Positions 11,300 to 60,527 of a stretch of 64,000 nt of DNA are shown piece after piece. The position numbers and the translations under genes were made by a program. The stretch comes from a virus. Its lineage: Duplodnaviria > Caudoviricetes. Position 1 is the stretch's first letter. The number at the start of each line of letters is the position of its first letter. The notes under the pieces were generated by a model that was not told where the DNA came from, did no database searches, and saw nothing but the letters and a program-made list of their open reading frames with translations. Where the stretch lies: IMG/VR virus record IMGVR_UViG_3300025892_000008; one strand, 5' to 3'.

Positions 11300-11335
11300 A
11301 GTAGTATTTATGTGCGTAGTTAATGGGAGATAAAA

Positions 11336-13939: not shown

Positions 13940-14398
13940 TTATAGTGATGCATCATCTAGTCCAGCAGTTCTAAGTTTAACAATATTAGATAACTGCCAT
14001 TGTTTAATGTCTAGTCCTTTAATTATTCCTAGCCATTTGTTACGTAGTAGTGCGAATTCATTTATAATTTTTTCGAAGTCAACAACATCGGCTTCGCCAT
14101 CTACAAATTTTTCAGCGTCTCTTGAGCTTAATTGACGTTGATAATTTTCAACATATTTTCTAAAATGTGTTGCACGTAAACGGCGAAGTTCGATGTTTAA
14201 GTATTCGAGTATTGCTTCAATTTCTTGAAGTTGCCCAAATCGAGTTTCAACAAGTGCTGGCATAACCGACGATGCTTTTTCAATACGACCTGTAATATTT
14301 GTTTCCTTTTTTGCTTGCAATAATTCTGCTTCGTAATATTGTACTGCCGCAGGGATATTGTTTACATCTTTAGAAACTTTATCATACCAATTTGTCAT
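13940..14398 (-). CDS. uvsY: UvsY-like recombination mediator
   Basis: Helical protein with Y.ENY.R.LSSRDAEKFVDGE and KGLDIKQWQLSNIVKLRTAG; downstream of uvsX; start moved to MTNWYD. Confidence 0.75.
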   Translation of the reverse strand: MTNWYDKVSKDVNNIPAAVQYYEAELLQAKKETNITGRIEKASSVMPALVETRFGQLQEIEAILEYLNIELRRLRATHFRKYVENYQRQLSSRDAEKFVDGEADVVDFEKIINEFALLRNKWLGIIKGLDIKQWQLSNIVKLRTAGLDDASL

Positions 14399-14399
14399 A

Positions 14400-14621
14400 T
14401 TAATTCCAATCTTCTTCTTCGTCAGTTGGTTCGTCTTCGAGAACATATTCAAGTGCAGCATCAAGATATGTATCTATACCCATCATACCTTCTAATGTTG
14501 ACTCAGGAATATCGTAATCAAGTAATGTATTAACGTATTCTTGAGCAGCCTCTGCTTTATCTTTCTCTGCAATCTTCTCGCTTAAGACACCCCATATGTC
14601 TGCTATCATGTTTGCTTCCAT
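14400..14621 (-). CDS. Small acidic hypothetical protein
   Basis: Fills the uvsX-uvsY gap with 1-3 nt spacing. Confidence 0.7.
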   Translation of the reverse strand: MEANMIADIWGVLSEKIAEKDKAEAAQEYVNTLLDYDIPESTLEGMMGIDTYLDAALEYVLEDEPTDEEEDWN

Positions 14622-14624
14622 ATC

Positions 14625-15695
14625 TTACTCCGCTACAGGTTCAGTTATCTCCTCTAACTCGACTTCGACTGGTTCTACAGTCTCAGGCTCCTTACCAAGT
14701 TCTTCCATAATTATGTTTAGTTTGTCGCCAGTCCAGTTTTTACGATACTCTAAATGGACTTCTCCATTCAAGTCTGTATATTTAAGTCTATTACCATCTT
14801 TCTTAAGCAAACCTTTTGCTTCAAACAAGTCAACACATCCACTGTATGGATCCATTCCTGTTTCATATGGAATCTGTACTTGTACTGCTTCAAACGGCTT
14901 TGCATAACGTGTTTTCATTACCTTACACGCAGCACGAATACCTTGTACTGTAGTAGTCTTATTACCATCTGCGTCTACTTTTAGTTTAAGTTTACGCATA
15001 GCAACAACAATACTTGATGCATATATAAAGCCTTGTCCACCACTAATCTTGTCATCTGGATCAAACATATCTTGTGATGCATATGTGTGGTTAGTACATA
15101 CCATACCTACGTTATAACTACCAATCATATTAACAGTATTACGTACAAGTGATGTTAGTGCTTTAGGCTTACGACCCATATCACCTTTCATATCACCTTT
15201 GTTAAACTGATCAACATCTGTAGGTGTTAGTAACATACCAAGTGAGTCAATTACAAACAATACTTTAGGGCGTTCTTCTTCTGCCATATCTCTGTATTCT
15301 TTCATAAACTCTGATATTGTTTTAGCAACATCATCAATCATGCTCATGTTAAGTTTAAGAATCTTTTCTGGAGATGTGTCTACATCTAATGCGTGTAGCC
15401 ATTTCTCATCTAAGGCATTCTCTGTGTCAATTAGTACTACAAAGATACCTTGTTCTTGTGCCGATTTTACAATATTACCGGCAGCAATATATGATTTACC
15501 TGCACCCGATTCTCCTGCTAATACAGTTACCTTGCCTAGTGGAACACCTTTGTGGAAGTCGCCACTTACAAGATAGTTAAGTGCATAGTTGCCTGTGCTG
15601 ATCCAATCTGTAGGATCATTAAAGCCAATACCAAGTCCGTCAATAGACTTTGTAAGACTTTTTCTAAATTTAGTTACGTCAAACGCTTTTGCCAT
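14625..15695 (-). CDS. uvsX: UvsX/RecA recombinase
   Basis: GESGAGKS Walker A, DTENALD, VIDSLG, ISGGQGFIYASS. Confidence 0.92.
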   Translation of the reverse strand: MAKAFDVTKFRKSLTKSIDGLGIGFNDPTDWISTGNYALNYLVSGDFHKGVPLGKVTVLAGESGAGKSYIAAGNIVKSAQEQGIFVVLIDTENALDEKWLHALDVDTSPEKILKLNMSMIDDVAKTISEFMKEYRDMAEEERPKVLFVIDSLGMLLTPTDVDQFNKGDMKGDMGRKPKALTSLVRNTVNMIGSYNVGMVCTNHTYASQDMFDPDDKISGGQGFIYASSIVVAMRKLKLKVDADGNKTTTVQGIRAACKVMKTRYAKPFEAVQVQIPYETGMDPYSGCVDLFEAKGLLKKDGNRLKYTDLNGEVHLEYRKNWTGDKLNIIMEELGKEPETVEPVEVELEEITEPVAE

Positions 15696-15775: not shown

Positions 15776-16774
15776 TTATTGTTGTCTATTACGGATCATT
15801 GCTAAAATGTCCTGTGCTCTGTTAGCACTGTCGCCACCTTCTGCTGGAGCCGCTTCAGCCACTGGTGCTGTAGTTGCTGCAGGAGCCGGAGCAGTTTCTG
15901 CTACTGGAGCAGGTGCCGCCGCTGGCGCTGGTGTTGCCGCTGGAGTACTTTGAGCTTTGTTTGGATCACCTGTACGTTGTGACACACCCGCTGGACGGAA
16001 GTATTGTCCCCATCTGTCCATATCGTATGCTTCACCATCTACTGATGCTTCGAACATTTCTTTCATTACTTTAAGTTCAACTTCGCCTGGCTTCTTAGGA
16101 AGGAAGTCTGACAAGTTAAACACACCGTTTGAGTCAACTGCTGCTTTTTCTTCATCGCTCAATGCACGCTCTCTACGTGACCACTGTGATGTTGAATAAT
16201 CAGCATAACCACCTTTAGAAGTTTTCTTGATTCTAAAGTCTACACCCTTCATAAAATCAGTTGGCAATTCTTCCAATTCAGGATCCATTAATGCACCCTT
16301 AATAATTTGGAAAATTTGTGGACCAATAATAAAACGTCTAATTGGATTTTCTGGAGTTGAATCCTCACCAATCGGATCTTCGTTTACAAAGCCTTGGAAA
16401 ATGTAAGAACGCTTTTTCCAATACTTACGACCCATATCTTCAAGACTCTTATCTTTAAACCATGGACGTACTTCTGTTAGAATCGGACAAGTAGTACCAT
16501 CGTTGTACATTTCCACACATGGAACCTGCACAATTAAGTTACGGTTATCTGATTCGCCTTTAATACCTGCGAAAGGTAATTTAATCATCGCACGTTCTAC
16601 CCAAAAGAATGTGTTGTCAGTGTTACCGTCTGGTAAGAATCTTACCACGGCTTCCTTGCCTTCTTGCATATTCCAATGTGGGTAAATTGCGTTGTCTCCG
16701 CCTCCAGTAGAATTACCAGATGAGCGATTTTGTTGTTCCGCTAGTTTTGCGCGGATCTCTGCTAATGATGCCAT
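15776..16774 (-). CDS. ssb: Single-stranded DNA-binding protein (T4 gp32-like)
   Basis: VRFLPD, VQVPCVEMY..G.TCPI, KYWKK, IGPQIF, GYADYSTS; Ala/Pro-rich linker; GGAGG SD. Confidence 0.85.
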   Translation of the reverse strand: MASLAEIRAKLAEQQNRSSGNSTGGGDNAIYPHWNMQEGKEAVVRFLPDGNTDNTFFWVERAMIKLPFAGIKGESDNRNLIVQVPCVEMYNDGTTCPILTEVRPWFKDKSLEDMGRKYWKKRSYIFQGFVNEDPIGEDSTPENPIRRFIIGPQIFQIIKGALMDPELEELPTDFMKGVDFRIKKTSKGGYADYSTSQWSRRERALSDEEKAAVDSNGVFNLSDFLPKKPGEVELKVMKEMFEASVDGEAYDMDRWGQYFRPAGVSQRTGDPNKAQSTPAATPAPAAAPAPVAETAPAPAATTAPVAEAAPAEGGDSANRAQDILAMIRNRQQ

Positions 16775-16833: not shown

Positions 16834-16862
16834 ATTATATGCAACTTTATTTATCTTGTCAA
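16834..16862 (-). promoter_or_regulatory. Consensus sigma70 promoter TTGACA-17-TATAAT for ssb-uvsX-uvsY, with GATAAATA inside the spacer
   Basis: TTGACA at 16862-16857, TATAAT at 16839-16834, 17-nt spacer. Confidence 0.85.
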
Positions 16863-16896
16863 GTGTATTTTTAACTAAATGTGATTTTGTTTAGCC

Positions 16897-16929
16897 AAAA
16901 GGAAAGGATCCGAAGATCCTTTCTTTATT
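16897..16929 (-). terminator. Rho-independent terminator with cUUCGg tetraloop, downstream of pqqA
   Basis: GAAAGGATC-TTCG-GATCCTTTC followed by CTTTT; T-rich on the other side as well. Confidence 0.8.
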
Positions 16930-16962: not shown

Positions 16963-16988
16963 CTACTTCTACTTCTACTTCTACTTCT
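16963..16988. repeat. Hexamer tandem repeat (CTACTT)x4
   Basis: Directly visible just downstream of the pqqA stop. Confidence 0.9.
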
Positions 16989-16992
16989 TTGT

Positions 16993-17064
16993 CTATCGGT
17001 TGGCTATGTACATCGTTACTTCGAAGCCGAATCTCATCTCTATTGCTTGAGGTTTTGTCCACAT
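16993..17064 (-). CDS. pqqA: Pyrroloquinoline quinone precursor peptide PqqA
   Basis: Manual translation [23 protein letters not shown] (23 aa). It has the MWTKP start and GFEVTMY core with Glu15/Tyr19; AAAGGA SD lies 7 nt upstream. Confidence 0.93.
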
Positions 17065-17081
17065 ATTGATTTCCTTTATAT

Positions 17082-17117
17082 AAAAAAAATAGTGTAGCAG
17101 TTTCCTACTACACTATT
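17082..17117 (-). terminator. Rho-independent terminator (GAAA loop) after the 982-aa gene
   Basis: AATAGTGTAGTAG-GAAA-CTGCTACACTATT followed by a T run; TAAATA at 17122-17117 abuts its 5' arm. Confidence 0.8.
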
Positions 17118-17157
17118 ATTTAAACATCTTTACGTATAAAATCAATACGTAAAATCA

Positions 17158-20106
17158 TTAAAATTTAATAAGATCTTTAATTCTACCTAGTTCTTCTAGT
17201 TCGTCTGCGCCTTGTTCTTGTGCAGGAGCCATTCTCTCTACCATCTTACGTGCAACCTGCTCAGCCTGTTCACCAAACTTCTTGCCTACCATTGTTGCTA
17301 CACCTTCTGGGCCTTTTGGAAAAGTGCCTGTAGTACTATCATAAAAAGATTTAATAAATTCTGCTAAACCTTCTAATGTGTGTTCTTCACCATCTGATGT
17401 TTTAAACTTAGTGCCTTTCTTAGCACCTTGTGCTTTAAGAGACGAAACTTTATCGCCGTATTCGTTTCCTTCAGTTTCTTGTCCTTCTAAATCAACAGGC
17501 TCACCCATTACATCTTCAGCGTCTACATCACGTTTTACTTTTTCAAGTCCGTGCTTTTTAATTTTTTCGATATAGTCTTTGGTAATCATATCAGCATATG
17601 CATCATCAGCATCTTTGCCGCCTGTTATTTCTGCTTCTAGTTGCTTAATGCATTCTTCTTCACTATCACAGTTTGAAATAATTTCCATTCCACCTGTAAG
17701 TGCCATATCCCAAGCATTACCACCTTCTGAAACTGATCCTTCTTGTGGTGCTTGATTGTCCATATAATCTTGCATAACCCACATATGAAATTCTTCCATT
17801 CCTTCTAATTCTTCCATATCTCCGGAGTCAACTTCTGTACCGTCTGTGTAATACACAGGAGCATTTACATTAAACATCTCATCACTAACATCTTGCATGT
17901 CGTAATCTAGTTTGTCCATATCAACTTCTTTGCCTTTAAACATTATTGGATCATTCATTTGTCCATAATATCCACCGGCTTCTTGTGTTTTGCTATAAGA
18001 TTCGCCTGACAGTTTCATAATATCATTTAGTTCATCTGCTTCAGGATCTTTGCCTTTGAAACCTTTGAATGCACTACCGCCACCTTTTAACTCTGGTTGC
18101 GTATCTTTGTAGTCATCATCGGAGTCTTTGTTCATTAATTCTTCTTGATGCTTTTTAAGTTCATCAATAGTGTCAAATGGTCCGCCTGTAATTTTCTTAT
18201 CTTTAATACTAAAGAACATACCGTCCTTTTGAATAGCAGCAAGTCCATACTTGTTCATACCCATTGATGGATCTTTCATAAACTTACTTGTCACACCTTC
18301 TTCTTGTTGTGGTTCAACTTCGGCTGCGCCTGCTGTTGGCTCATCAATCATATCACCAAAATCTAATTCGGATAATACGTCTGGTGCATTTTCTTCAACC
18401 CAAGCCTTAACCATAGGACGAACATCTGCTTCTGGCTCTGCCTTTTTAATATCTTGCTCTAGTTTAGGATCTTCAATAATGCCTTCTAAACTTTGAATAG
18501 CATTAATACCTTCTACGCCTGCTTGGAATTCTGTCTTAAGCATTCCATTTAGTTTTTTAACCATGTCTGACTTTTGTTCTTCGTCTGCCGTTGTTAGTGG
18601 AGATTCTTCGCCTAGTTGATTAACCCAATTTTCAAACTTTGCAAAGCCTTCCATACCACCAGCATAAGCATCTGCGGCTGGACGGCCTTTTGGTCCTTTG
18701 TTACCTTGCTCCTGATCTTGATGTTCTTGAGCACCTAATATTTTAAGACATTTCTTACCTGTCTCATAAACGTCTGCTGGATCTGCATCAATCATATCTC
18801 TCATCGCTGAATAACAACTTAATGTTTTATCGTCGGCTTTAAGATGCATGTTGGCAAAGTGGTCTCCCATTTCATCTGCAATATGATCATTGTCAGTAAA
18901 GTCGTCACTGGCTTTATTCATTAAATGATAGATGTCGCCTTCTAGCTCGTCTTTAAGTTCTTCTGCATTTAGTTGACTATTATTTTCTATGTCTTCTGGA
19001 CCAAATAAATTAAGTTCTTCTGGATCTGTAATTCTATCTGCCTTATCAAATGCATCTTCCATGCCTGTCATTGCGACTATGTCGTCATAGCCTACAGTTT
19101 CTTCTTCCTTCATTAATTTATAAATGATAGGAAATGCGTTAGCAATATCTTCTTTAAAGTTTTTAACTGTAAATTTTTCTGTGTATTCTTTCATTACATC
19201 ATCTGGTATTTCCATTGCCTCTGGCTCTTGGAATTCTGCTACATAGTTTTCGTAATGTGCCTGTTTAGATAATTTTGCAATTCTTTCTCTTAACCCGTTG
19301 AGCTGTGCTTTGCTGCGTTCAACAATTGAATTAGTGTCGGAGTTCATTAAATCGTTACGTACACAGTAATTTGTAAAACTTTTTAGTTGAGCAATTTCTT
19401 CGCTTGTTTTAATAATGCTTTCGCCGATAGCATCATATGGTAACCCGCCGTTAGCCACATGTCGCTGCATAGCTCTTGCACCTGCTAAGTGAACAAAAGG
19501 ATATTTAAATCTTTCACCGTCTTGGTTCTCAACAAATAGTGCAGAAATATTTCTACTTCTATCACCTGGTTTTTGTTCAAAGTCATCAGCAAGTTTCTTG
19601 CTGTGCTTAATAATTAATCTCGTGTCTTCCAACTTTTGGAAACTTTGTGTTTTCGTTCCATAAAGATTACTCTCATTCATTACTGCTTCTCCGACGGGTT
19701 TAGTTATTGTATCGTTATCCGATTGTGGCGTTGAGTGTTGACTAAGGAAAGCATAATCACGTTTGTCTAAATTATCCTTTGCAATGTCTCTAGTATCAAA
19801 TGCCAATAGTCTGCGTTTTGCAAACATTCTAAGTTCTTTTAGGAAAGCGTACCAATTACCTTTTTGATCTTGGTCCATACCTTCGGTAATACCACTCGAA
19901 AAGTATACCTTCATTGAATTAGGTTCTGCTAAACTAATGCTTACATGCCCTATGTTTTTATCGTTTTCCATGTAGTCAAAATCAAAGAAACGAGCATTTT
20001 CAGGGTTAATTGTAATTTGCCCTGTTGATTCGCCTAGTTTTAAACCTGTAAATCTACTTCTAATTTTATAGAACAGATCGGTTGAAATGTTGTTGGTTGC
20101 ATCCAT
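17158..20106 (-). CDS. Large acidic modular protein (982 aa), probable virion/head-associated protein
   Basis: Co-transcribed after the terminase; start moved to MDATNN (TAAATA-5nt-ATG; the track start is a TTG); strongly D/E-rich. Confidence 0.7.
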   Translation of the reverse strand: MDATNNISTDLFYKIRSRFTGLKLGESTGQITINPENARFFDFDYMENDKNIGHVSISLAEPNSMKVYFSSGITEGMDQDQKGNWYAFLKELRMFAKRRLLAFDTRDIAKDNLDKRDYAFLSQHSTPQSDNDTITKPVGEAVMNESNLYGTKTQSFQKLEDTRLIIKHSKKLADDFEQKPGDRSRNISALFVENQDGERFKYPFVHLAGARAMQRHVANGGLPYDAIGESIIKTSEEIAQLKSFTNYCVRNDLMNSDTNSIVERSKAQLNGLRERIAKLSKQAHYENYVAEFQEPEAMEIPDDVMKEYTEKFTVKNFKEDIANAFPIIYKLMKEEETVGYDDIVAMTGMEDAFDKADRITDPEELNLFGPEDIENNSQLNAEELKDELEGDIYHLMNKASDDFTDNDHIADEMGDHFANMHLKADDKTLSCYSAMRDMIDADPADVYETGKKCLKILGAQEHQDQEQGNKGPKGRPAADAYAGGMEGFAKFENWVNQLGEESPLTTADEEQKSDMVKKLNGMLKTEFQAGVEGINAIQSLEGIIEDPKLEQDIKKAEPEADVRPMVKAWVEENAPDVLSELDFGDMIDEPTAGAAEVEPQQEEGVTSKFMKDPSMGMNKYGLAAIQKDGMFFSIKDKKITGGPFDTIDELKKHQEELMNKDSDDDYKDTQPELKGGGSAFKGFKGKDPEADELNDIMKLSGESYSKTQEAGGYYGQMNDPIMFKGKEVDMDKLDYDMQDVSDEMFNVNAPVYYTDGTEVDSGDMEELEGMEEFHMWVMQDYMDNQAPQEGSVSEGGNAWDMALTGGMEIISNCDSEEECIKQLEAEITGGKDADDAYADMITKDYIEKIKKHGLEKVKRDVDAEDVMGEPVDLEGQETEGNEYGDKVSSLKAQGAKKGTKFKTSDGEEHTLEGLAEFIKSFYDSTTGTFPKGPEGVATMVGKKFGEQAEQVARKMVERMAPAQEQGADELEELGRIKDLIKF

Positions 20107-20117
20107 ATTATTATTTA

Positions 20118-21707
20118 TCAAAAACCGCCGCTTATGAATATAGGCATTGGGTACTGGTCTTCGGTCATTCTCTCCGTCATTTTTTCATATATTTTAGGAT
20201 CCCAATCAGCCAATTGACTTGCCATGCGTATGATTAGTAAGCAAGCACTGACTAAATCGTCATGTTCGCCTGTTTTAGCACCGTATCCTACACCGTGTGC
20301 TACAAATGTCTTTAACTCTGATATTAACGGTTTACTATTAATCTTCAACTTGTTTCTTTCTAGTGCATTTTTAAAAGTGCTACAGGCAGTAATCTTTGTT
20401 TTGTGTGTGGTGTTAAATCCTTTTCTAAATTTTCTTACATGTCCTTTTCTCATAGGTTCACTTAGGAATAGCCCGTGGAAGTTTTCTTCACCTATATCTT
20501 TAATAACAACTAATGCTGCTTCGCCTATGGTGTTATTCTCACAACTGTAATATATTGTAGGATTTGCATTGCCGCCGGCAGTTTGTTCATCATAAATGTA
20601 TTTTAAGATGCTCTTTAAATGTCTTATCTGTTGCTGTATAGGTGTAAGATTGTGTCTCCATTCTCCAACCTGTTCCATTGCAGGCATTTCAAATATCTGT
20701 ATGGCTGAGTAGTCGCCACCAGTTCCTAGTGATGGATCAAGTGATAACAAATAAGTTGCTTTAGGATTAATTTTTTTATACCAACGTGTTTGCCCCATAT
20801 TTTGAATTGGTTCTTTGCCTTCAAGTTCAGCAAGTTTCACACTATTAATTAATGTTTCATCAAAGATTAAAAATTCGCAATCAAACTCACGACGGAATCG
20901 TTCGTCTCCAATTTTGGAACGTTCTTCTGCTGCCCATGCATCATCTCTATCTGGATGCTCTGTCCATGGAGCAAAATAAGGATAGAAGCCGTTGGTTCCT
21001 ACAACGTTGTCATTACCAAATTCGTCAAACTTTTTATTTGCTTCTGTCCAAATCATAGCAAACTGATCTTCATCTGAGTTTGGTGTGCTTGTAACAATCG
21101 CTTTACCACCTGTTGACAGTGTAGGAGAAAGTGCAGTCCAAAACTCTTTGGCTTTTTCTGGTGGTTGCACAAACGCAAACTCATCACAGTATATTAATGA
21201 AAGTGATTTACCACGTCCAGTATCTTCTGTTGTGGTTGTTGCTTGTATTCTACTGCCGTTATCAAATTCAATTGTGTTTCTGTTGTATGTATAGATACCA
21301 GCACGAACAAAGTCAGGCAATGTTTCATACCCGTATCTAAATCTGTTCATGATGTCCTGCGCACCTGTATATTTGTGTGCAGCAATTAGCACCTGCGATT
21401 CAGGAGTAAACATTGTATACCATAATAAATATCCAGCAGCACAGGTTGTCTTGCCCATCTGTCTTGGTAGCATAGCAACACAGTATCTGTTTTCTGCATA
21501 TGCTTGAATTAGTTCTCGTTGAAATCCATAAGGTACAAACTTCATTGAACCTTTTACAGGGTGTTGAATGGTTAGAAAGTTTTCACAAAAGTATAATGGA
21601 CCCGTGATAGGATCCATACAAGCCTCTAAGTGCTTGACTTCCTCTAGTGTATATTTTTGCTTTTCATGGGCTTTCTTAATCTGAACGCCATCTAAACTCT
21701 TTGCCAT
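20118..21707 (-). CDS. terL: Terminase large subunit (T4 gp17-like)
   Basis: PRQMGKTT Walker A, IYCDEFAF Walker B, TSTPN motif III, LDPSLGTGGDYS and HDDLV nuclease motifs. Confidence 0.95.
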   Translation of the reverse strand: MAKSLDGVQIKKAHEKQKYTLEEVKHLEACMDPITGPLYFCENFLTIQHPVKGSMKFVPYGFQRELIQAYAENRYCVAMLPRQMGKTTCAAGYLLWYTMFTPESQVLIAAHKYTGAQDIMNRFRYGYETLPDFVRAGIYTYNRNTIEFDNGSRIQATTTTEDTGRGKSLSLIYCDEFAFVQPPEKAKEFWTALSPTLSTGGKAIVTSTPNSDEDQFAMIWTEANKKFDEFGNDNVVGTNGFYPYFAPWTEHPDRDDAWAAEERSKIGDERFRREFDCEFLIFDETLINSVKLAELEGKEPIQNMGQTRWYKKINPKATYLLSLDPSLGTGGDYSAIQIFEMPAMEQVGEWRHNLTPIQQQIRHLKSILKYIYDEQTAGGNANPTIYYSCENNTIGEAALVVIKDIGEENFHGLFLSEPMRKGHVRKFRKGFNTTHKTKITACSTFKNALERNKLKINSKPLISELKTFVAHGVGYGAKTGEHDDLVSACLLIIRMASQLADWDPKIYEKMTERMTEDQYPMPIFISGGF

Positions 21708-21712
21708 ACTAG

Positions 21713-21720
21713 TATTTATA
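21713..21720 (-). promoter_or_regulatory. T4-type late promoter TATAAATA, 5 nt before the terL ATG
   Basis: Exact T4 late consensus; the same core recurs before many structural genes. Confidence 0.75.
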
Positions 21721-21725
21721 GAAGG

Positions 21726-21749
21726 AAATAGGCTCCGAAGAGCCTATTT
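21726..21749 (-). terminator. Terminator-like hairpin with cUUCGg loop
   Basis: AAATAGGCTC-TTCG-GAGCCTATTT, immediately upstream of the terL late promoter. Confidence 0.7.
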
Positions 21750-21771
21750 GGATAGTATAAAACGTACTAAC

Positions 21772-24058: not shown

Positions 24059-24499
24059 TTATCGTCTCTTGTTGCCAGTGTGAAAAATATCTTCTTCATT
24101 TACAATACGGAATCTAACACGTTTTTGTTTACACCATGCTCCTGCTGCTTCCCATTTTGCCATATTTTTAATATACTGTTCTTGATTGAATCTGCTTTTT
24201 CCAACATGTTCTCTCATAGTTTGGTTTTTAGGTTTTACTTCTATAACTTCCGCTCTCTTCTTTCCACCTTTTTGCAAATATACAACAAAAAAGTCTGGAA
24301 CATATATTGAATACTTTCCTGTTAATGGATCTCTATATGGTATCTTGATACTTTCACTTGCCCATGTTTCTACACCTGGATGTTCATCCAGCATTCTCAT
24401 AAAAACAAACTCCCAACTACTTCTAGCAAGGGGTTTTTTTGTACCTACATATTTTGCAGGATTCTTCATTTCGAATCTTCCTTGTGCAAACTTAGGCAT
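24059..24499 (-). CDS. Head completion nuclease (T4 gp4-like, TnsA-type PD-(D/E)xK)
   Basis: RSSWE, WASE..IPY, Y.PDF, EVKP, KWEAA..WC, F.IVNE. Confidence 0.88.
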   Translation of the reverse strand: MPKFAQGRFEMKNPAKYVGTKKPLARSSWEFVFMRMLDEHPGVETWASESIKIPYRDPLTGKYSIYVPDFFVVYLQKGGKKRAEVIEVKPKNQTMREHVGKSRFNQEQYIKNMAKWEAAGAWCKQKRVRFRIVNEEDIFHTGNKRR

Positions 24500-25981: not shown

Positions 25982-25997
25982 ACTAGTATTTAGCCAT

Positions 25998-26029
25998 AAA
26001 AAAAGCCCGGGGTTTTAAGCCCGAGCTTT
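25998..26029 (-). terminator. Rho-independent terminator after the tail tube gene
   Basis: AAAGCTCGGG-8nt-CCCGGGCTTT followed by a T run. Confidence 0.8.
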
Positions 26030-26053
26030 CTAATATCAATACTAAAATTAGTA

Positions 26054-33889: not shown

Positions 33890-35319
33890 TGGATTTTTTC
33901 TACGACGGACAGATTAGAAGATATGTAACACAGTTTATGCGTATCTTTATCGGCTTTAAATATGAAGCAGGTAACGGCGATCAGCAATCTGTTCCTGTAA
34001 TGTACGGCGATTTGACACGCCAGGTAGCAAACATTATTAGAGAAAACTCTGAAAACAAATTGCCAACAGTACCTAGAATGGCAGCATATATTACTGGAAT
34101 GGACATTGATACAAGTAGATTAACTGATCCTACATTTGTAAGTAAAGTAAACATACGTGAAAGAAACTATAATGTAGACGAATCAGGAAATAGAGAATAT
34201 ACAGGCGCTCCAGGAAAGAATGTAACCGTAGAAAGATTGATGCCAACACCATATATGATGACATGTAAACTAGATATATGGACAAGTAATACAGATCAAA
34301 AATTACAATTGCTAGAACAAATAATGGTCTTGTTTAATCCTGCATTTGAAATACAAACTAACGACAACTACATTGACTGGACTAGTTTAAGTGTAGTAAG
34401 AATGACTGGAATGAATTTTAGTTCTAGAAGTATACCTGCTGGAACTGAGTCAGAAATTGACATTTGCTCAATAGATTTTGAAATACCAATGTATGTTTCT
34501 CCTCCTGCCAAAGTAAAAAAACTAGGTGTTGTAAGAAGCATAATAGCAAACATATTTACAGAAGAAGGTGATATACAAAACTTATCAAGTCTAGTTTACA
34601 ATCAGAAAGTTTCAAATGATGTATATGTAAATCCAAGATACCCTGTATTGTTATTCAAAGCAAATAATGGTAATCCTAATGATTATGACTTATCTATATT
34701 AGATCAGAATGCTGCAATACAAAGTTTAGGACTAGATAAAAAAGAATTTACAGATGATAAAAAACTTGACTGGAATGCTGTATTAGCAGCACTAGGAAGT
34801 TTTACAGAAGGTACTAGTACAATACATTTCCGTCAACCTAATGGTGAAGACATCACAGGAACATTTGCAATCAATCCTGTTGATAACTATATTCTCTTAG
34901 TAACAATTGATAAAGATTCTCCAGGATGGACAGAAAATACTTTACTTGTAAGTCCTCAATATCCTGACGGCAAGGGAACGTTTGATGCAATTGTAGATCC
35001 AACTACCTATAATCCTATTGCTAGATTAGGTACTATTCCAACAGGACATAGATTACTAATCTTAGAAGATGTAGCAGATAATGCTGATGGCTGGAAAAAC
35101 AACGACAGCACTAATACATCTATCAAAGCAAACAGTGTTGCTGAATGGAATGGAGCAAGTTGGGCAGTGGTATTTGATCCGGCTACTGTCGAAAATTTTA
35201 CATATCTCAGTAATATTACTACAGGAATACAGTATAAGTGGGATGGTATACAGTGGATTAAATCTTTCGAAGGCGAGTATGCACCAGGTTATTGGAGACT
35301 AGATCCTGAAGGTGCATAA
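33889..35319 (+). CDS. Tail terminator/sheath stabiliser (T4 gp15-like) with C-terminal extension
   Basis: FFYDGQIRRY, VPVMYG, VPRM, MPTPY, DQKLQLLEQI..LFNP. Confidence 0.8.
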   Translation: MDFFYDGQIRRYVTQFMRIFIGFKYEAGNGDQQSVPVMYGDLTRQVANIIRENSENKLPTVPRMAAYITGMDIDTSRLTDPTFVSKVNIRERNYNVDESGNREYTGAPGKNVTVERLMPTPYMMTCKLDIWTSNTDQKLQLLEQIMVLFNPAFEIQTNDNYIDWTSLSVVRMTGMNFSSRSIPAGTESEIDICSIDFEIPMYVSPPAKVKKLGVVRSIIANIFTEEGDIQNLSSLVYNQKVSNDVYVNPRYPVLLFKANNGNPNDYDLSILDQNAAIQSLGLDKKEFTDDKKLDWNAVLAALGSFTEGTSTIHFRQPNGEDITGTFAINPVDNYILLVTIDKDSPGWTENTLLVSPQYPDGKGTFDAIVDPTTYNPIARLGTIPTGHRLLILEDVADNADGWKNNDSTNTSIKANSVAEWNGASWAVVFDPATVENFTYLSNITTGIQYKWDGIQWIKSFEGEYAPGYWRLDPEGA

Positions 35320-35327
35320 GTAGTTTT

Positions 35328-35714
35328 ATGCAAAAGAGAGTAGGACTATTATATCTATCTAGAGATTCGCACAGAATACTTCTTATTTTAGAAAACGAAA
35401 AATGGACCGTACCAACATTTTCACTTGAAAATAGTGTAATACAAGATAGTGAAGATTTACAACAAAAATTTTCTAGAGGTAAAATAATACCTATAGAATT
35501 GTATCTTTCAAAAGACAAAGGTTTTGAGTACGGAACGTATATTTGTCTTGTAAAAGAAGAATTTATTACTGAAGAAATACCAACATTTTGTTGGGCTGAT
35601 TTAGGTTACCTGCCCAAGAATGTACACACTGGACTACGAAGTACATTAAATAATAGTCTTATACGTACAAAAATAGAAACTGTACTGGAGTTAGAAGATG
35701 CTGTCAATATATGA
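35328..35714 (+). CDS. Degenerate Nudix-fold-like protein
   Basis: GLLYL..RILLIL...W and F.Y.TY..LV.EEF..W flanking pattern, but no Nudix box. Confidence 0.4.
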   Translation: MQKRVGLLYLSRDSHRILLILENEKWTVPTFSLENSVIQDSEDLQQKFSRGKIIPIELYLSKDKGFEYGTYICLVKEEFITEEIPTFCWADLGYLPKNVHTGLRSTLNNSLIRTKIETVLELEDAVNI

Positions 35715-35970
35715 GTCTGAATCATTTCAAAATGATTATAACAATTACAAAAATAAAATTGAAAAAATTACAGATGAAAGTCTTAAAAATCAATTACAAA
35801 ATTTTCTTAATAAGTTAGTTGCACATGTAAAAGCATTTGACAAAGAGCATTCTGAAATGATATATTCTAAAAGTATCAGATTAGGAAACGATCACAAAGA
35901 CGGAATTGCTGAAGTAAGAAAAGTTATTGAGAGAAAACTTCGTGATTGGGATCAAATACAAAAAACTTAG
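35698..35970 (+). CDS. Hypothetical helical protein (90 aa)
   Basis: Overlaps the upstream gene; convergent with the fibre gene. Confidence 0.6.
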   Translation: MLSIYESESFQNDYNNYKNKIEKITDESLKNQLQNFLNKLVAHVKAFDKEHSEMIYSKSIRLGNDHKDGIAEVRKVIERKLRDWDQIQKT

Positions 35971-37558: not shown

Positions 37559-40063
37559 CTATTCCTTTGTTATAGCAAATGCATTTGCACTTGCATATCT
37601 ACTATATATTATTTTTAAATCTTGTCCAAATGTACTTGTACTTATCTGATTATAGTCGGCATTTTGGCCTGTACTATACACAACACTTTTTGCATCTGCT
37701 AAAATTTTTGATTTTAATTGTGCCGGAGTAAGTGTTGAATCTGATTCTAGATGTAAACATAATAGTCCTGCAACTTGTGGTGCTGCCATAGATGTTCCGC
37801 TTATGCTCATTTGGTAAAAACTGCCATTGTCAAAATATGCTATCGGCGCAAACTTAGTGTTATTATATGGAGTACTACAAGCACTCATGATATCTGAACC
37901 TGGTGCCCATATATTACATCCTGGTCCTCTACTTGAAAAAATACTTGTTCTATCTTTTTCAGCACCGCTATCGTCTTGTGTAGTGCTATCTAAACTAGCA
38001 ACCATGTATGCATTTGAGCTATACGGTGAACTGCCTCTATGATAAGTTGTTGTACTTCCCTGCCATAATACATCATTATCATAATCAGTACCGCCAGATG
38101 CTTCTATTTTGTTATAGTTATTACCTGCTGCAATTACTACATGTATTCCTGCTGATACCATATCTTCTATTTCAGCATCGACTGATGCTACTCTGACACT
38201 CAGTTTACATGCTGACGAAGCGCCTAAGGTTGTTCTATTTTCATTTACTCCAGTTGCTGCTTCTAACGCTGCTCGAGTACTATATTCAACACCATATGTC
38301 CAGGCTGTTCCCCTGTATGTTCCGCTTGTTGGATCTCCTGTCCTTGTAGTTCCGTATCCCCAACTCATGTTAACAACCGTGGGCCTATTGTTTGATTTAT
38401 TATTGTGCCAAAGTCTAATTGTATCAAATGCGTTAGTGATACTAATGCCATCATTTGGATCTAATGTACCTTCTAGTCCACCTAATTTTTGAGCATATAT
38501 TCTTGCATTTTTTGCCCAGCCAAATGTTTTACCTACGGAAATACCTGCACAATGAGTGCCGTGGCCGTCATAGTCTGTGTAAAAGTTTGAGTCTTGTGTT
38601 TCACCTACAATACCACTGTCAGCAAACCAATCAATTTCTTGCACTCGTGATGCAGACGGTTGTGCTACATAGCCAGATACTCCAGCATCATTATCTTGAA
38701 ATATACGTTTTAGTATATTAAAATCTGGTTTACTAAGTACTGGTGCAAAGTATTTGTTAAACATGGCATAACCTAGTGGATTATTTGCTAACATACCTGC
38801 AGGTGTTTTTAAAGTATCATCCCATTCAGGACTAAGACTTTCTCCGTCCCAAAACTCACTCATATCCCACATTGACCAATTTACTAAGTAAGTATATTCT
38901 TTATATGCTACTACGGCTGCATCAGAATCTGTTGCCCAATCAGTAGCATAACCACTTGGATCATATAACCCTGCGTCAATTGCTTCTTTCATAGCAAGAT
39001 GTAATTCTGTAGTCGTCCAAGAAAAACTTGGGTTACCATTTAATATCATCAGCAATGTTTCCATTGGAACTTGTGTTGCACTTCCTTCTACAGCCCCCGG
39101 AATACCAAAGTTGTGTATTGTATGGAACAAGTGTTCCATAATTTCTTCAATGTCTCTATCACTCTCACTAGGATCAGGACCGCTTGTGTTTTTATACCAA
39201 ACCATATCATTAACTGCATGACTGTCTAAAAAATCTGTATATCCAGAGTACTGTGCCGCGCCAGCATCTGTCAACCAATTTGGTGTATATGATGCTCCGC
39301 CACCATAACCAATTCGTTGTGCTGTTGGAGTTCCTGCATGTGTTGTTCCTGCATCACCTTTAAGTGTTGCAATTAAATTTTTCTGTTGTGTAATATCAAT
39401 GCTATCTCCGTTAGGATCAATTAATAACTTTACAGCCTGCGCTGTTTTCTTTACCCATTCATCTGGTACAGTTGTTTGTCCGCCGACCGCTCCTGCTGCT
39501 ACAAGTTTTACACCCCTTACAGTTAAACTTCTGTCAAAAACTGCTCCATTGGTTGCATCACTTCCTAATGCACCACTAGCATATTCAGTTGTGTTAGGCA
39601 TGTAAAACTCAGGATGGTCTGCTTGTATTCCGCTATCTTGTACAATAAAGTCTACACCTGTTCCGTCTAAAGCGTAAAGATGATCTCCTGATAATGTAGT
39701 TGCATCAGCAAACGTATTTGTTGCTTCATCGCATCTACGCAATCCCCAGTTTACCCAAGTTGCGTTATTTCCAGACTGTCTTTGAAAAGTTGCTGTTTGA
39801 CTTGCATGAAGTCCTATACTAATATCATCTCTTTGATCTGGTGGAATCTCTACAGCAACAACTCTTTCGTCTTGTTCTAAAGTTTCTGCTTCTTCGTCTG
39901 TGAGCATCCAATGTGTCATACGCTTTGATCCAATTCTTGGATTGGCTACTGTAACAGCTCTATTAGGTATCTGTCCTGAACCTGTATCTGCGGCTACTTC
40001 AGCATCAAATGCTTCAAGATCAACATCGGCTTTTACAATTACTACGTATTCTTTTTCACTCAT
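37559..40063 (-). CDS. Subtilisin-family (S8) serine protease with ~318-aa insertion
   Basis: Catalytic triad in VDFIVQDSG, DGHGTHCAG and SGTSMAAPQVAG; oxyanion-hole AAGN; N-terminal propeptide-like region. Confidence 0.9.
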   Translation of the reverse strand: MSEKEYVVIVKADVDLEAFDAEVAADTGSGQIPNRAVTVANPRIGSKRMTHWMLTDEEAETLEQDERVVAVEIPPDQRDDISIGLHASQTATFQRQSGNNATWVNWGLRRCDEATNTFADATTLSGDHLYALDGTGVDFIVQDSGIQADHPEFYMPNTTEYASGALGSDATNGAVFDRSLTVRGVKLVAAGAVGGQTTVPDEWVKKTAQAVKLLIDPNGDSIDITQQKNLIATLKGDAGTTHAGTPTAQRIGYGGGASYTPNWLTDAGAAQYSGYTDFLDSHAVNDMVWYKNTSGPDPSESDRDIEEIMEHLFHTIHNFGIPGAVEGSATQVPMETLLMILNGNPSFSWTTTELHLAMKEAIDAGLYDPSGYATDWATDSDAAVVAYKEYTYLVNWSMWDMSEFWDGESLSPEWDDTLKTPAGMLANNPLGYAMFNKYFAPVLSKPDFNILKRIFQDNDAGVSGYVAQPSASRVQEIDWFADSGIVGETQDSNFYTDYDGHGTHCAGISVGKTFGWAKNARIYAQKLGGLEGTLDPNDGISITNAFDTIRLWHNNKSNNRPTVVNMSWGYGTTRTGDPTSGTYRGTAWTYGVEYSTRAALEAATGVNENRTTLGASSACKLSVRVASVDAEIEDMVSAGIHVVIAAGNNYNKIEASGGTDYDNDVLWQGSTTTYHRGSSPYSSNAYMVASLDSTTQDDSGAEKDRTSIFSSRGPGCNIWAPGSDIMSACSTPYNNTKFAPIAYFDNGSFYQMSISGTSMAAPQVAGLLCLHLESDSTLTPAQLKSKILADAKSVVYSTGQNADYNQISTSTFGQDLKIIYSRYASANAFAITKE

Positions 40064-41684: not shown

Positions 41685-42464
41685 ATGGATAAAATGCATA
41701 CACGTTTAGAAGGAAAAATTAAAAAAGGTTGGGGCTATGAATTAATATGGGCCACTAATGAAAAGTACTGTGGAAAAATTATGGTATTTGAAAAAGTAGG
41801 TGCTAAATTTAGCATGCATTTTCATAAAGAAAAAGAAGAAACATGGTTTGTAAATTCGGGTAAATTTTTGCTTAAATGGATTGATACTAAAGATGCAACG
41901 GTACACACAAAAGAATTAGTAGAAGGCGACAAATGGCATAATCCTCCTTTACAGCCACATCAACTAGAGGCACTTGAAGAAATGAGTGAGATATTTGAAG
42001 TAAGCACAGCCGACAGTGTCGAAGACAACTACAGAGTTTTTCCAGGTAGCAGTCAGCAGTCAGACAAAAAAATTATTGTAAATGGTAGTTTTGATATTAT
42101 TCATAAAGGGCATATTGAATTATTAAACTATGCAAAATCATTAGGGGATCATTTGTTAGTTGCTATAGATAGTGATAATAGAATTAAACAATTAAAAGGT
42201 TCAGACAGACCTATTAATTCTTTAGATGAAAGACTAAACTTACTATCTAATCTAAAAGCAGTTGATGATATTTCTTATTTTGATTCAGAACAAGAACTAG
42301 TAGATATTATAAAAAAGTATAATCCTGATATAATGGTAAAAGGCAGTGATTATAAAAATCAAAGAATTGTTGGCAAGGAATATTGCAAAGCAATCGAATT
42401 CTATGAGATAAATGATGGTTATTCAACAACAAAAAAATTACAAGATATTATTAATCGGGGATAG
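41685..42464 (+). CDS. hldC: Fusion of cupin and D-glycero-beta-D-manno-heptose 1-phosphate adenylyltransferase (RfaE domain II/HldC-like)
   Basis: KKGWGYE...SMHFH..KEETW cupin; NGSFDIIHKGH, IDSD.RIK.LKG.DRPIN, VKGSDY, YSTT. Confidence 0.8.
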   Translation: MDKMHTRLEGKIKKGWGYELIWATNEKYCGKIMVFEKVGAKFSMHFHKEKEETWFVNSGKFLLKWIDTKDATVHTKELVEGDKWHNPPLQPHQLEALEEMSEIFEVSTADSVEDNYRVFPGSSQQSDKKIIVNGSFDIIHKGHIELLNYAKSLGDHLLVAIDSDNRIKQLKGSDRPINSLDERLNLLSNLKAVDDISYFDSEQELVDIIKKYNPDIMVKGSDYKNQRIVGKEYCKAIEFYEINDGYSTTKKLQDIINRG

Positions 42465-52737: not shown

Positions 52738-55700
52738 TTAGTTCAAAAAGTAATTATATGCTAAAGGAAGGCCCACAACGCCACCTTTAAAGTTGAATTT
52801 AGCATTCATTTCAATTACACCGCCTGTTGTAGTAGTAATAGTGTTGTTTTGGATTGTAATAAATCCAGCCGTTACACTGTTAACGTTAAGAGAAGCACCA
52901 CCGCCACCAATTTGTGAACTGATGTACGATTTAATTGCTCTCTGCGTTGGAACAATATTATCACTATTAGCACTAAAGAATGGATCTGTACTAAACTCTT
53001 GTACACTTGCTGAGTTACCACCTAGTGTAACTTCACCTAGTGTAAGTTCTTGTAGTCCTGAAATATTAAATGCATCAGCATTCAATGTTGCAACACCAGT
53101 TGATTGTTCAATTGTAAACAAGTCGCCAACTCTAAAGTTACCGTCTTGGTCAGTTGATGTAAAGAATACTCTACCACCGTTGTTATCTTTTGTTTCATTT
53201 GCTTGATCTGGCAACTGAGTTGGTGTATTAGGATAGTTAGTAGTAGTAAATCCACCAGTACCAACATCTAGGAAATCGTGTCCTGTCAAACGTACCTGTG
53301 AATATCTAATTCTAGTAGTTACTGTTGCTCCATCTGGTGGTGTATCAAATACTGTTACATCTGGTGCAATTTGTAAGAATGCTGTATAACTTCCATCATA
53401 TGAACCTAGTAGTGAAATAACCTGTACCAGTTTAAATGTTCTTTCTGGCAAGTGTCCAAACACAACGTTTGATCCTACTGCTGGAATTTTTGAAAGTCTT
53501 CTTACAGCAACAAACTGTCCGCTTTGGAATAAGTCTGCAAAACCGTTACCACTTAACAAGTCTGCACTTGCTGAAGTATATCCTGTTCCTCTATTAGTAA
53601 AGGATGGGCAACCTAATGCACCTTTACCGATTCTAACTTGTGTAGGTGCTTCGTATGTATTATTAGGATCTGTAATAGTTAATGTAGGTGCTGTGCTATA
53701 TCCACTGCCTGGCTCTACAAGTCTAATTGCAAATATTTTTTCAGTTGCAACAAATGCTCTACCAGTAGTAGTTGCACCTGCTTTAATTTGCATTGCTCCG
53801 TTACCACTTCCTTGTCTAACTCCTAAGAAACTACCTACTTGCTGTGGATTACCAAATGCTGTTGCTACTAATCCATTGCTTTCTGCATGTGTTCTTGCAG
53901 TCCAAACAATACCATCTGGTGATGTAGCATAATTTGCACCGTTACTTACTGCTACAAACATACCTTGTCCGTATTCAATATTAGACCATTGTGCTGTAGC
54001 CGGAAGTGTACTTGCTATCCATGTTACTCCACCGTCAATACTTACTGCGGCTACTGTTCCGTTTGTTGATGAAACTGCAACGAATCTGTTATTACCATAA
54101 GTTACACTGCTCCAGTTTGAGCTGCTTGGTAAAGTTGCTGCTGTCCATGTTACTCCAAGATCGCTGGAGTATGCTGCTGCTGTGCCGCCACTTGCTACTG
54201 CTACCCAGTATCCTTGACCGTATGCAATGCTTTCCCAAGTTGTTGCACTAGGTAATGTTCCTGGGGAAGTCCATGATACGCCGTTAGTTATTGACAGTGC
54301 AACTGCGTTTGTACCAGTTTTGATTGCCATAAAGTTACCAGCACCGTATCCAATTGCGTTCCAAGTTCCTGTGCTTGGTAAATTACCACCTGCTACATAA
54401 GTTGCACCAGCGTCTAATGAATAAGCAACATCATCAACACCACTGCCTCCTGCTATAGCAACTATTGCTGCTGCATTTTCTCTTGCTTCACCTGCAATTG
54501 TTGTAAATGATCCTACACCAGTAGCAACAAATGTTGTTCCTGTAACAATTGAAGTTGATCCAATTGATAACCAAGGTGTGTCACCTGGTGTTGTAATTGT
54601 GTAAGAACGTCCTACAACAAAATTTCCTGCACTAATAACTCTTTGTAAGCGTCCTGCAGCAATTCCTGTCCAAGTTGTACTTACTGGTAATGCTGTGCCT
54701 GCAGTAAATGTAGATGCATCTAATGATGCGTTTGTAGTTGTACCACTTGCACTACTAATTGCAACAAATGTTCCACCTCGTGCTGTACCATCCTTATCAA
54801 ATGCTAGGATTGCACCAGAGGAAGCATTAACTGATGTAATTGTAATTGTAATGTTGTTTGCGCCGGTTGTTCCGCCAACTGCTGCACCGTTAAATGTTAA
54901 AACTTCATTTGCAGCATAGCCAGTTCCGCCAGCAATTAAATCAACTCTATACTTGGTACCTTTTGCAGTAACATTAAATGTTGCGCCAGATCCAGATCCT
55001 GTTGTTGAGTTTTGTGAAATAGTTGCATAAGTGTTATAGAACTCACTATATGTAATTCCTGTCCAAGTTGTACTTCCATTAGTAGTTCTAGCAGTAGTAC
55101 TATGAGTTGGTGCAGTAAACGCTACTTGAGGTTCAATTGTATAAGTTGTTGATGCATCAGGTGCTGCAATAGTAGTACCTGGTACTATATGATCCCAGCC
55201 TGCTGCGCCTGTTGAAGGTTTTGTAACAGTTGCTACTTTAGTACCTGAGTTATATGTTGCAATATTACCAAACTGCCCAACACCTGTACCGCCATCTAGG
55301 TAAACTCTCATACCTATATAAGCCAAAGATGTTTCAGAGTCAGTTGCAGCAATTGTAATTTGTGATGTTGTTCCGCCCTGTGCAGTGTTTGAATTTGTAA
55401 TGTATCCAAACCCACCGTAGTTTCCTGCTGCTTCTGGTGCTGATGTTGAATCATCAACATTATCAAGAAGTCTTACTTCGAATACAGAGTCATCTCTAAA
55501 TTCTTTATCTTGTTCTGCTGTTGCATTTGATCCTGCACCAAACAGTCCCCATTGAGTTTCAGTGTATTCTGAACCAGCATTAGTAAATTCAAAGTTAAGA
55601 ATTTTATTAGCAGCGTCAGTCATAACACTTCCAACTGTTGATTCAAACTGTAATCTGTTATCAACAATCGCTGTTCCAGGAGTTTCAGTTGAATCAAAAC

Positions 55701-60477: not shown

Positions 60478-60527
60478 TGTATCTTTCCATTGTTATATTA
60501 TATTTATCCATGTTACTATAGTTCTCC

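Follow-up and report, generated by a model that had tools for sequence, protein, structure and literature searches.

A lone pqqA gene in a marine jumbo myovirus: a small cassette that probably sustains the supply of PQQ precursor during infection

The IMG/VR virus record IMGVR_UViG_3300025892_000008, analysed here over a stretch of 64,000 nucleotides (the window), carries pqqA, the gene for the precursor peptide of the cofactor pyrroloquinoline quinone (PQQ), and no gene for the enzymes that mature it was found in the same stretch. It is probable that this is a functional phage-borne pqqA, built as a self-contained moron of approximately 230 nt, that sustains the flow of precursor to the enzymes of the host during infection. 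In bacteria the leader of PqqA is bound by PqqD, a glutamate and a tyrosine of the peptide are cross-linked by PqqE, an enzyme of the radical S-adenosylmethionine (SAM) kind, and the cross-linked peptide is then trimmed and completed by PqqB and PqqC, one peptide being used per cofactor (PMC10906245). The phage peptide would follow the same route, its leader being bound by host PqqD, its Glu15 and Tyr19 being cross-linked by host PqqE and the product being finished by host PqqF/G, PqqB and PqqC, at one peptide per PQQ molecule. The identity of the gene can be read directly; we infer that it is expressed, that its product is processed by host enzymes and that the phage derives a benefit.

The identification of the open reading frame (ORF) as PqqA is secure on sequence grounds. 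By direct translation it runs for 23 codons from ATG to TAG on the minus strand (17064..16993), and the 23-aa peptide matches two independent curated models along their whole length, PF08042 (43 bits against a cutoff of 21.1, E=4e-11, model positions 1-19 of 19) and the equivalog model TIGR02107 (41.4 bits against a cutoff of 20, E=9e-11, positions 1-21 of 21). Both scores are about twice the cutoffs, and E values of this order make a chance match implausible. The E15-x3-Y19 core is intact, Glu15 and Tyr19 being the residues that are turned into PQQ, and the leader residues W2, P5, R11 and G13 are all kept. The original prediction, which was made from the DNA letters, had described a 23-codon ORF in this interval, given its peptide and placed the cross-linked residues at Glu15 and Tyr19; translation agrees on each point and adds that the strand is the minus strand. 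The good Shine-Dalgarno sequence that it reported is also there, AAAGGAAA lying 7 nt ahead of the ATG. Two of the checks it proposed, a match to a PqqA hidden Markov model and conservation of E15 and Y19 in other phages, gave positive results, the first with both models and the second in five copies extracted from phage isolates by tblastn, a search that does not depend on the motif, in all of which the glutamate and the tyrosine are kept. A plus-strand reading of 16993-17064 was rejected, as the frame is meaningless and contains no ORF, and no second PqqA-like ORF was found in the 64-kb window. The peptide is a variant of its own (Q6, I8 and an IANR tail), and none of the sampled genomes or viral contigs contains an identical copy.

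The gene is unaccompanied. Searches of the window by tblastn with Methylophilus PqqB, PqqC, PqqD and PqqE gave no match, the same queries serving as a positive control by matching 46-65 of 120 bacterial pqqA loci, and Pfam and PHROGs scans of the 58 window ORFs found no radical-SAM, PqqB-E or PQQ-dehydrogenase domain, all of which upholds the earlier statement that pqqB/C/D/E are absent from the window. Operons of pqqBCDE are present at many of the sampled bacterial loci, and this typical linkage is not seen at the window pqqA; many sampled Methylophilaceae pqqA loci are also without an adjacent pqqB. Five large relatives of the window gave no match to PqqE or PqqD, those records being only 12-40% complete.

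Lone copies of pqqA prove to be widespread in phages. With the peptide as query, tblastn yielded 12 matches among 50,697 phage records, nine of them to Methylophilales/Methylophilaceae phage records (Venkman, four Melnitz variants, MEP301, MEP401, MEP402 and P19250A), which represent five phages with intact PqqA ORFs (MEP401 and MEP402 counting as one), and one to a freshwater-spring virus (Manatee Spring). The remaining two, filed as 'Acinetobacter phage MD-2021a', were discarded; the one that was inspected (CAKLQF020000010.1) is a bacterial contig with ppk, pqqBCDE and a dipeptidase gene. Further Methylophilales phages are listed in the NCBI taxonomy that fall outside these matches, and the claim is not made for every such phage. 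The gene is without GenBank annotation in all five isolate records that were inspected: in Venkman, P19250A, MEP301 and MEP402 it occupies an unannotated gap, and in Melnitz (MZ577097.1, 6001-6066) a hypothetical protein gene, 152, has been called over it on the opposite strand. PQQ appears in the Melnitz paper only as a medium supplement, present at 1 nM in the medium used for isolation, and among searchable papers none was found that links pqqA with OM43 or mentions the gene of the cultured phages.

A scan of IMG/VR with a degenerate GFEVTMY pattern, in which seven codons are fixed, found at least 120 contigs with a match. Each of the 120 listed contigs contains a complete PqqA ORF of 23-24 aa, with a start 12-13 codons before the motif and a stop 4 codons after it. 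Among these listed peptides 103 are of the Methylophilaceae type, 7 are like the window variant and a few have the look of Pseudomonas/Marinobacter or gammaproteobacterial methylotroph PqqA; 38 have an exact counterpart in Methylophilaceae genomes of 1.3 Mb. The 1.02 Mb of sequence that flanks the 120 listed copies gave no PqqB-E match, and none of the 50 longest viral records, including eight rated at least 90% complete by CheckV (32-66 kb), has a PqqE above cutoff. The original prediction had held that the phage supplies only the substrate: within the window this stands, and complete viral genomes that have pqqA likewise carry it alone as a rule.

These surveys bear on two alternatives. The phage might encode its own radical-SAM/SPASM-like enzyme that cross-links PqqA, leading to PQQ made independently of the host or to a different product. 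We regard this as distinctly unlikely, because none of the eight small complete phage genomes with pqqA has PqqE, so that processing by the host suffices there, because the large relatives have no PqqE or PqqD match (at only 33-40% completeness), and because the window peptide is of an ordinary host type. The broader form of the idea, that the phage carries a partial or alternative cofactor pathway in which a radical-SAM enzyme of its own acts on PqqA and makes PQQ or a new cross-linked peptide, is a little less probable again. A short peptide with a leader could in principle also compete for the recognition element (RRE) pocket of PqqD, to which PqqA leaders bind (PMC10906245), and the phage peptide might then act as a decoy or inhibitor that occupies host PqqD/PqqE and lowers PQQ synthesis, redirecting radical-SAM reductant or SAM or assisting in host takeover. 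Such a role is highly improbable, as the cross-link residues and all the conserved leader residues are kept and a peptide identical to a host copy, as 38 of the 120 listed viral peptides are, is a substrate and not an inhibitor.

The variation among the viral copies points to a gene that is maintained for its product. In a set of 98 viral nucleotide sequences, all of them distinct, P5 and R11 never vary, each being encoded by four synonymous codons, W2 is invariant too, and N22 is present in 97 of the 98 with AAC and AAT used at close to 1:1; positions 4, 6 and 8 vary freely. The search pattern leaves W2, P5 and R11 free, whereas it fixes G13, the invariance of which is uninformative. This pattern of substitution indicates that viral pqqA is under purifying selection. 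The mean GC content of the viral copies is 0.36 as compared with 0.44 for the bacterial ones, and no bacterial copy in the sample exceeds 79% nucleotide identity to the window gene, the longest exact match being 20 nt. An SD-like motif precedes 110 of 110 viral copies (scored with a lenient motif set and no control), and a terminator-like hairpin lies within 150 nt downstream of 51 of the 110, compared with 8 of 330 control windows.

Low nucleotide identity to bacterial copies, amino-acid conservation under synonymous variation, the shift in GC and the possession of the gene's own signals together rule out freshly captured host DNA, an att-site core or a passenger in decay, and the intact ORFs point the same way. 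The more general notion of a passive passenger, in which captured host DNA, an att-site core or a recombination scar persists with no function for the phage, might draw on the position of pqqA in a variable spacer that gathers other small cargo and on the fact that several of the methylophage carriers are small siphoviruses with recombinases nearby. It is nevertheless the least probable of the explanations considered: the composition has been ameliorated to that of the phage, all 120 listed ORFs are intact, and pqqA is also found in the strictly T4-like Melnitz and in jumbo phages, with independent gains at different loci.

The gene that we take to sustain precursor supply sits in a compact cassette whose boundaries can be drawn by comparison with relatives. 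It is flanked by viral genes on both sides, TerL and a 987-aa virion protein upstream and a gp32-like single-stranded DNA-binding protein (SSB), UvsX and UvsY downstream (Table 1), and the synteny of the 987-aa gene with the SSB gene is kept in dozens of relatives. Where relatives lack pqqA the spacer between these two genes is short (approximately 125-215 nt) and consists of the stop codon, a homologous CTTCGG-loop hairpin terminator directly following the 987-aa gene, and a near-perfect sigma-70 promoter with the SSB leader. The spacer is 384 nt in the window and 392 nt in the closest relative, L242 (SSB 84% identical), and in both the same terminator stands downstream of pqqA, from which it follows that the cassette entered between the 987-aa gene's stop codon and its terminator. 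As judged from these alignments the terminator at 16895..16923 is the ancestral one of the 987-aa gene, which now ends the pqqA cassette, and the sigma-70 promoter of the SSB gene forms the downstream boundary.

At the 5' edge of the cassette is a conserved non-coding element of 40 nt which is identical at 38 of 40 positions (95%) between the window and L242, the pqqA coding sequence being only 72% identical, and which is missing from the 'empty' spacers of relatives; it is a candidate promoter or operator for pqqA. It is followed by a 13-bp hairpin and U-tract resembling a terminator, and in L242 and a second relative, L243, a different hairpin occupies the place equivalent to 17080..17117. 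The whole cassette gives an RNA fold with z=-5.9. The GAAGTA repeats that follow the stop codon are present only in the window and correspond to a 27-nt alignment gap in L242; this spot was flagged in read mapping as a repeat where contigs break. Within the 40-nt element the TTTAAATA box is similar to boxes of the TAAATA type that stand immediately upstream of TerL and of further late genes in the window, and it abuts the 5' arm of the 13-bp hairpin. A transcript begun at this box would carry an incomplete hairpin and could read into pqqA, whilst transcripts of the upstream gene would terminate. As a late-type promoter for pqqA the box is a lead only, TTTAAATA occurring 11 times in the window on both strands. 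T4-late-like boxes (TATAAATACTAGT, CTAAATACTAGT, CATAAATACTACT and GATAAATAT) also lie right before start codons on the minus strand, in 21708-21771, 25982-26053, 11300-11335 and 60478-60527, often just past a CTTCGG-loop terminator, and these look like the late promoter type of the phage.

The spacer has received more than one kind of insert. IMG/VR contains at least 593 relatives of the SSB, 74 of which have enough upstream sequence to be examined for pqqA. Following up the suggestion that the region upstream of ssb should be compared in related phages, pqqA was found beside SSB only in the two closest (SSB 84% and 82% identity) and in 0 of the other 72; the pqqA-bearing locus thus recurs in the viral relatives L242 and L243. 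Many of the 72 have other small cargo in the same spacer, most commonly a secreted Ala/Lys/Pro-rich protein of 56-85 aa (MKS..AFAQAPAKKEEAKPAA...) and otherwise further short ORFs, and on this comparison the spacer between the 987-aa and SSB genes is a hot-spot for cargo in this group of marine jumbo myoviruses. A more distant member, G137 (TerL 61%, SSB 76%), carries pqqA at 86702-86758, which is 64 kb from its SSB locus and on the other strand, and this placement indicates that pqqA has entered the phage group, or moved within it, more than once.

The likely hosts are themselves rich in pqqA. All 81 sampled Methylophilaceae genomes have the gene, with a median of 5 matches (range 1-12) and two or more in 78 of the 81, in agreement with an earlier count of 3-12 pqqA copies and a single pqqBCDE (Beck 2014, PMC4109929). 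Five genomes of 1.3 Mb, the size of OM43, each have exactly three copies together with a PqqE over cutoff. In such genomes two of the three copies stand in tandem approximately 200 nt apart (G045, 846723-846989; G060, 852285-852552). The host of the window phage was sought by comparison with a sample of 120 bacterial pqqA loci, among which the best match to the window peptide is 20/23, in an uncultured betaproteobacterial metagenome-assembled genome (MAG), followed by 19/23 in Methylophilaceae and Burkholderiales MAGs and 17-18/23 in OM43-size genomes. The host is probably a marine methylotrophic betaproteobacterium belonging to the Methylophilaceae or a neighbouring group. The original prediction had noted a resemblance to betaproteobacterial/Methylophilaceae PqqA as a hint of the host; the peptide is indeed of that kind, but with a best match of 20/23 the hint to the host is weak.

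This leaves room for the proposal that the PQQ is put to a use outside methanol oxidation, for instance as an antioxidant during infection or as the cofactor of another quinoprotein (a glucose, alcohol or other dehydrogenase) where the host is not a methylotroph. The YIANR ending of the window type occurs in Burkholderiales MAGs outside the Methylophilaceae, and there are the few viral peptides of Pseudomonas/Marinobacter or gammaproteobacterial methylotroph type. We nevertheless hold this to be very unlikely, given that the great majority of listed viral copies (103 of 120) are of the Methylophilaceae type, that all cultured carriers infect methylotrophs, and that the sole viral quinoprotein found near pqqA belongs to the methanol/ethanol dehydrogenase family. 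That quinoprotein is on the viral contig G105 (IMGVR_UViG_3300025120_009955; 72 kb, approximately 20% complete), where a full-length PQQ-dependent dehydrogenase of the methanol/ethanol type (608 bits, cutoff 480) lies 6 kb from the contig's own pqqA, at 34049-35731 and 41887-41943. By the CheckV estimate G105 belongs to a virus of jumbo size; the fragment has no match to the TerL or SSB of the window.

An important consideration is whether an additional pqqA would raise PQQ above the level of the uninfected cell or would rather maintain it. When the phage shuts down its host or degrades the host genome, PqqA would be the first component to run short, because hosts express it most highly (approximately 1000-fold in one bacterium, and from 1-12 gene copies in Methylophilaceae), and the catalytic enzymes would persist. 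The phage pqqA would then keep PQQ synthesis, the activity of periplasmic methanol dehydrogenase of the XoxF/MxaF type and the energy supply going through the latent period. In Ketogulonicigenium vulgare pqqA is transcribed approximately 1000-fold above pqqB-F, and PQQ does not rise when it is over-expressed but does rise with more of the enzymes (PMC10520945). In one methylotroph, which has five pqqA copies, the expression of pqqA1 and pqqA3 follows the rate of PQQ synthesis (PMC9851590). This suggests that the precursor needs very high continuous expression and yet is not limiting in a healthy cell, and the two sets of data together favour sustained supply after host shut-off over a boost.

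The original prediction had the phage boosting PQQ-dependent dehydrogenases, the phage copy lifting PQQ above the uninfected level and thereby raising dehydrogenase activity and energy yield. There are grounds for such a model: the amplification of pqqA to 1-12 copies in Methylophilaceae suggests that dosage matters, in the PQQ-overproducing mutant the expression of pqqA1/pqqA3 peaks with the rate of PQQ synthesis (PMC9851590), and G105 also carries an apo-enzyme that would need extra cofactor. In K. vulgare, however, flux is limited by the downstream enzymes (PMC10520945), a result that fits sustained supply better and does not bear out the boost, which we consider rather unlikely.

Several points weigh against a sustaining role. 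The K. vulgare result itself means that precursor was not limiting in that uninfected bacterium. In two metatranscriptome assemblies, both belonging to a single study, the stretch is present at 100% identity, but at a flat depth such as carried-over DNA could give; in two further RNA runs the SSB gene is covered and pqqA is not. PQQ is a stable and reusable cofactor, and a need for new synthesis within one latent period is an assumption. The host call for the window phage is weak, with 20/23 to a betaproteobacterial MAG and 17-18/23 to OM43-size genomes. The scan found no sigma-70 promoter for pqqA, the proposed late-type promoter rests on a motif in an AT-rich genome, and a terminator-like hairpin ends only 15 nt (17079-17065) upstream of the pqqA start codon.

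The carrier of the gene can be placed by comparison with known phages and viral contigs. The TerL of the window has 53% identity to those of the PA5oct-type Pseudomonas jumbo phages and 48-52% to those of Atu_ph07 and Phosso, and no isolate phage close at the DNA level was found. IMG/VR relatives of 115-142 kb are rated 33-40% complete, from which a genome of about 350 kb is calculated, and the stretch recurs nearly letter-for-letter in marine metagenomes of at least six further studies dating from 2014 to 2025, which is the reason for describing the carrier as abundant and marine. Taken together the comparisons indicate a jumbo myovirus of roughly 350 kb that is marine, abundant and uncultured. 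Farther from pqqA the window encodes a 1139-aa tail sheath, a gp15-like sheath stabiliser, tail tube, baseplate and fibre proteins, and two sugar-nucleotide/modification clusters. A protein with a TnsA-like endonuclease domain (24059-24499, minus strand, 75 bits), possibly a homing or mobile endonuclease, lies inside the tail/structural module. Among the tail genes, also on the minus strand, are a 2579-aa fibre-like protein with three CBM5/12 carbohydrate-binding modules (52738-60477) and an 834-aa protein with an S8 subtilase domain (37559-40063).

Table 1. Coordinates of pqqA, of the elements of its cassette and of the neighbouring genes in the window
Feature	Position	Strand	Evidence and remarks
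pqqA, 23-aa PQQ precursor peptide	16993..17064	minus	PF08042, TIGR02107, translation
Shine-Dalgarno sequence AAAGGAAA, core AGGA	17077-17070	minus	ends 7 nt 5' of the ATG; read directly
Conserved 40-nt non-coding element, 5' edge of cassette	17118..17157	minus	inverted repeat TTTACGTAT-N7-ATACGTAAA (9 bp) and T4-late-like TTTAAATA box
13-bp hairpin (17117-17088) followed by U-tract, terminator-like	17080..17117	minus	terminator scan; after the 987-aa gene
(GAAGTA)x4 tandem hexamer repeat	16964..16987	minus	begins 5 nt past the pqqA stop codon; read directly
Intrinsic terminator GAAAGGATC-TTCG-GATCCTTTC and U-tract	16895..16923	minus	terminator scan; 97% identical to L242
Perfect sigma-70-type promoter TTGACA-17-TATAAT for the SSB gene	16834..16862	minus	12/12 match; conserved in all aligned relatives
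987-aa virion structural protein gene, probably late; upstream neighbour of pqqA	17158..20121	minus	PHROG 13484, E=1.7e-10; no Pfam match
TerL	20118-21707	minus	directly upstream of the 987-aa gene
gp32-like SSB, downstream neighbour of pqqA	15776..16774	minus	PF08804, E=9.4e-6, 26.2 bits, just below the 26.8-bit cutoff; relatives found by tblastn/blastn carry ssDNA-binding protein annotation
UvsX	14625-15695	minus	RecA, 59.9 bits
UvsY-like protein	13940-14464	minus	UvsY PHROG 231

Viral pqqA is already known. In the Lake Baikal methylotroph virus VP_266 a viral PqqA lies beside a viral methanol dehydrogenase and was read as an auxiliary metabolic gene that aids methanol oxidation (Coutinho 2020, PMC7678222), and a 2026 reservoir study lists PqqA among viral genes (PMC13188868); the original prediction had anticipated as much in stating that the gene might not be unprecedented. 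What is added here is a marine jumbo-phage member, the anatomy of the insertion and evidence of repeated gain, together with the observation that pqqA, alone and for the most part unannotated, occurs widely in methylotroph phages that are unrelated to one another, cultured ones among them, the maturation enzymes being absent even from complete phage genomes. Much of the methanol in the sea and in lakes is consumed by Methylophilaceae such as OM43 and LD28, and their sole entry to that metabolism needs PQQ. A lone pqqA has been gained repeatedly by unrelated phage lineages, namely siphoviruses, a podovirus, a T4-like myovirus and now jumbo phages, and it could be a hallmark gene and host marker for methylotroph phages as psbA is for cyanophages. 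The gene is overlooked by gene callers owing to its size, and since it is absent from the annotation of all five inspected isolate records it is probably counted too low in viral surveys. For several carriers both phage and host are in culture, so that the proposed sustaining mechanism is directly testable.

Comparison with known systems helps to define what is distinctive about the window gene. Bacterial PqqA (PF08042/TIGR02107) has the same length of 23 aa, the same MW.KP....R.G leader and the same E-x3-Y core, from which the window copy differs in being encoded by a virus and in having a nucleotide composition shifted toward the level of the phage. The window gene is as isolated as the orphan extra copies of pqqA in Methylophilaceae, which are mostly unlinked to pqqBCDE, and has an SD and a terminator of its own. 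The pqqA genes of the cultured Methylophilales phages share 17-18 of 23 residues with it and are likewise lone, without pqqB-E and placed between called genes, but their carriers are of different architecture, comprising 38-kb siphoviruses, a Zobellviridae podovirus and a 141-kb Kyanoviridae myovirus. The co-occurrence of PqqA and methanol dehydrogenase described for the Lake Baikal viruses was reproduced in one contig, G105. In contrast to those viruses the window phage is marine and not freshwater, is a PA5oct-related jumbo myovirus of approximately 350 kb and has no methanol dehydrogenase in the window, and its pqqA is one for which the insertion anatomy has been resolved. The cassette is like the morons of other phages in being small, in having its own signals and in being inserted into an inter-operon spacer in which the cargo differs among relatives. 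The classical definition of a moron derives from temperate lambdoid phages, in which the benefit usually falls to the lysogen, whereas this one is in a jumbo myovirus of lytic type and probably serves the lytic cycle.

The closest functional parallel may be the psbA gene of cyanophages. There is no sequence or structural relation between the two, D1 being a turnover-prone subunit and PqqA a substrate that is consumed stoichiometrically, and the expression and benefit of psbA have been shown experimentally, whereas we infer those of phage pqqA. With that qualification each gene would encode the fastest-used component of an energy-harvesting system of the host, for which the host supplies the rest.

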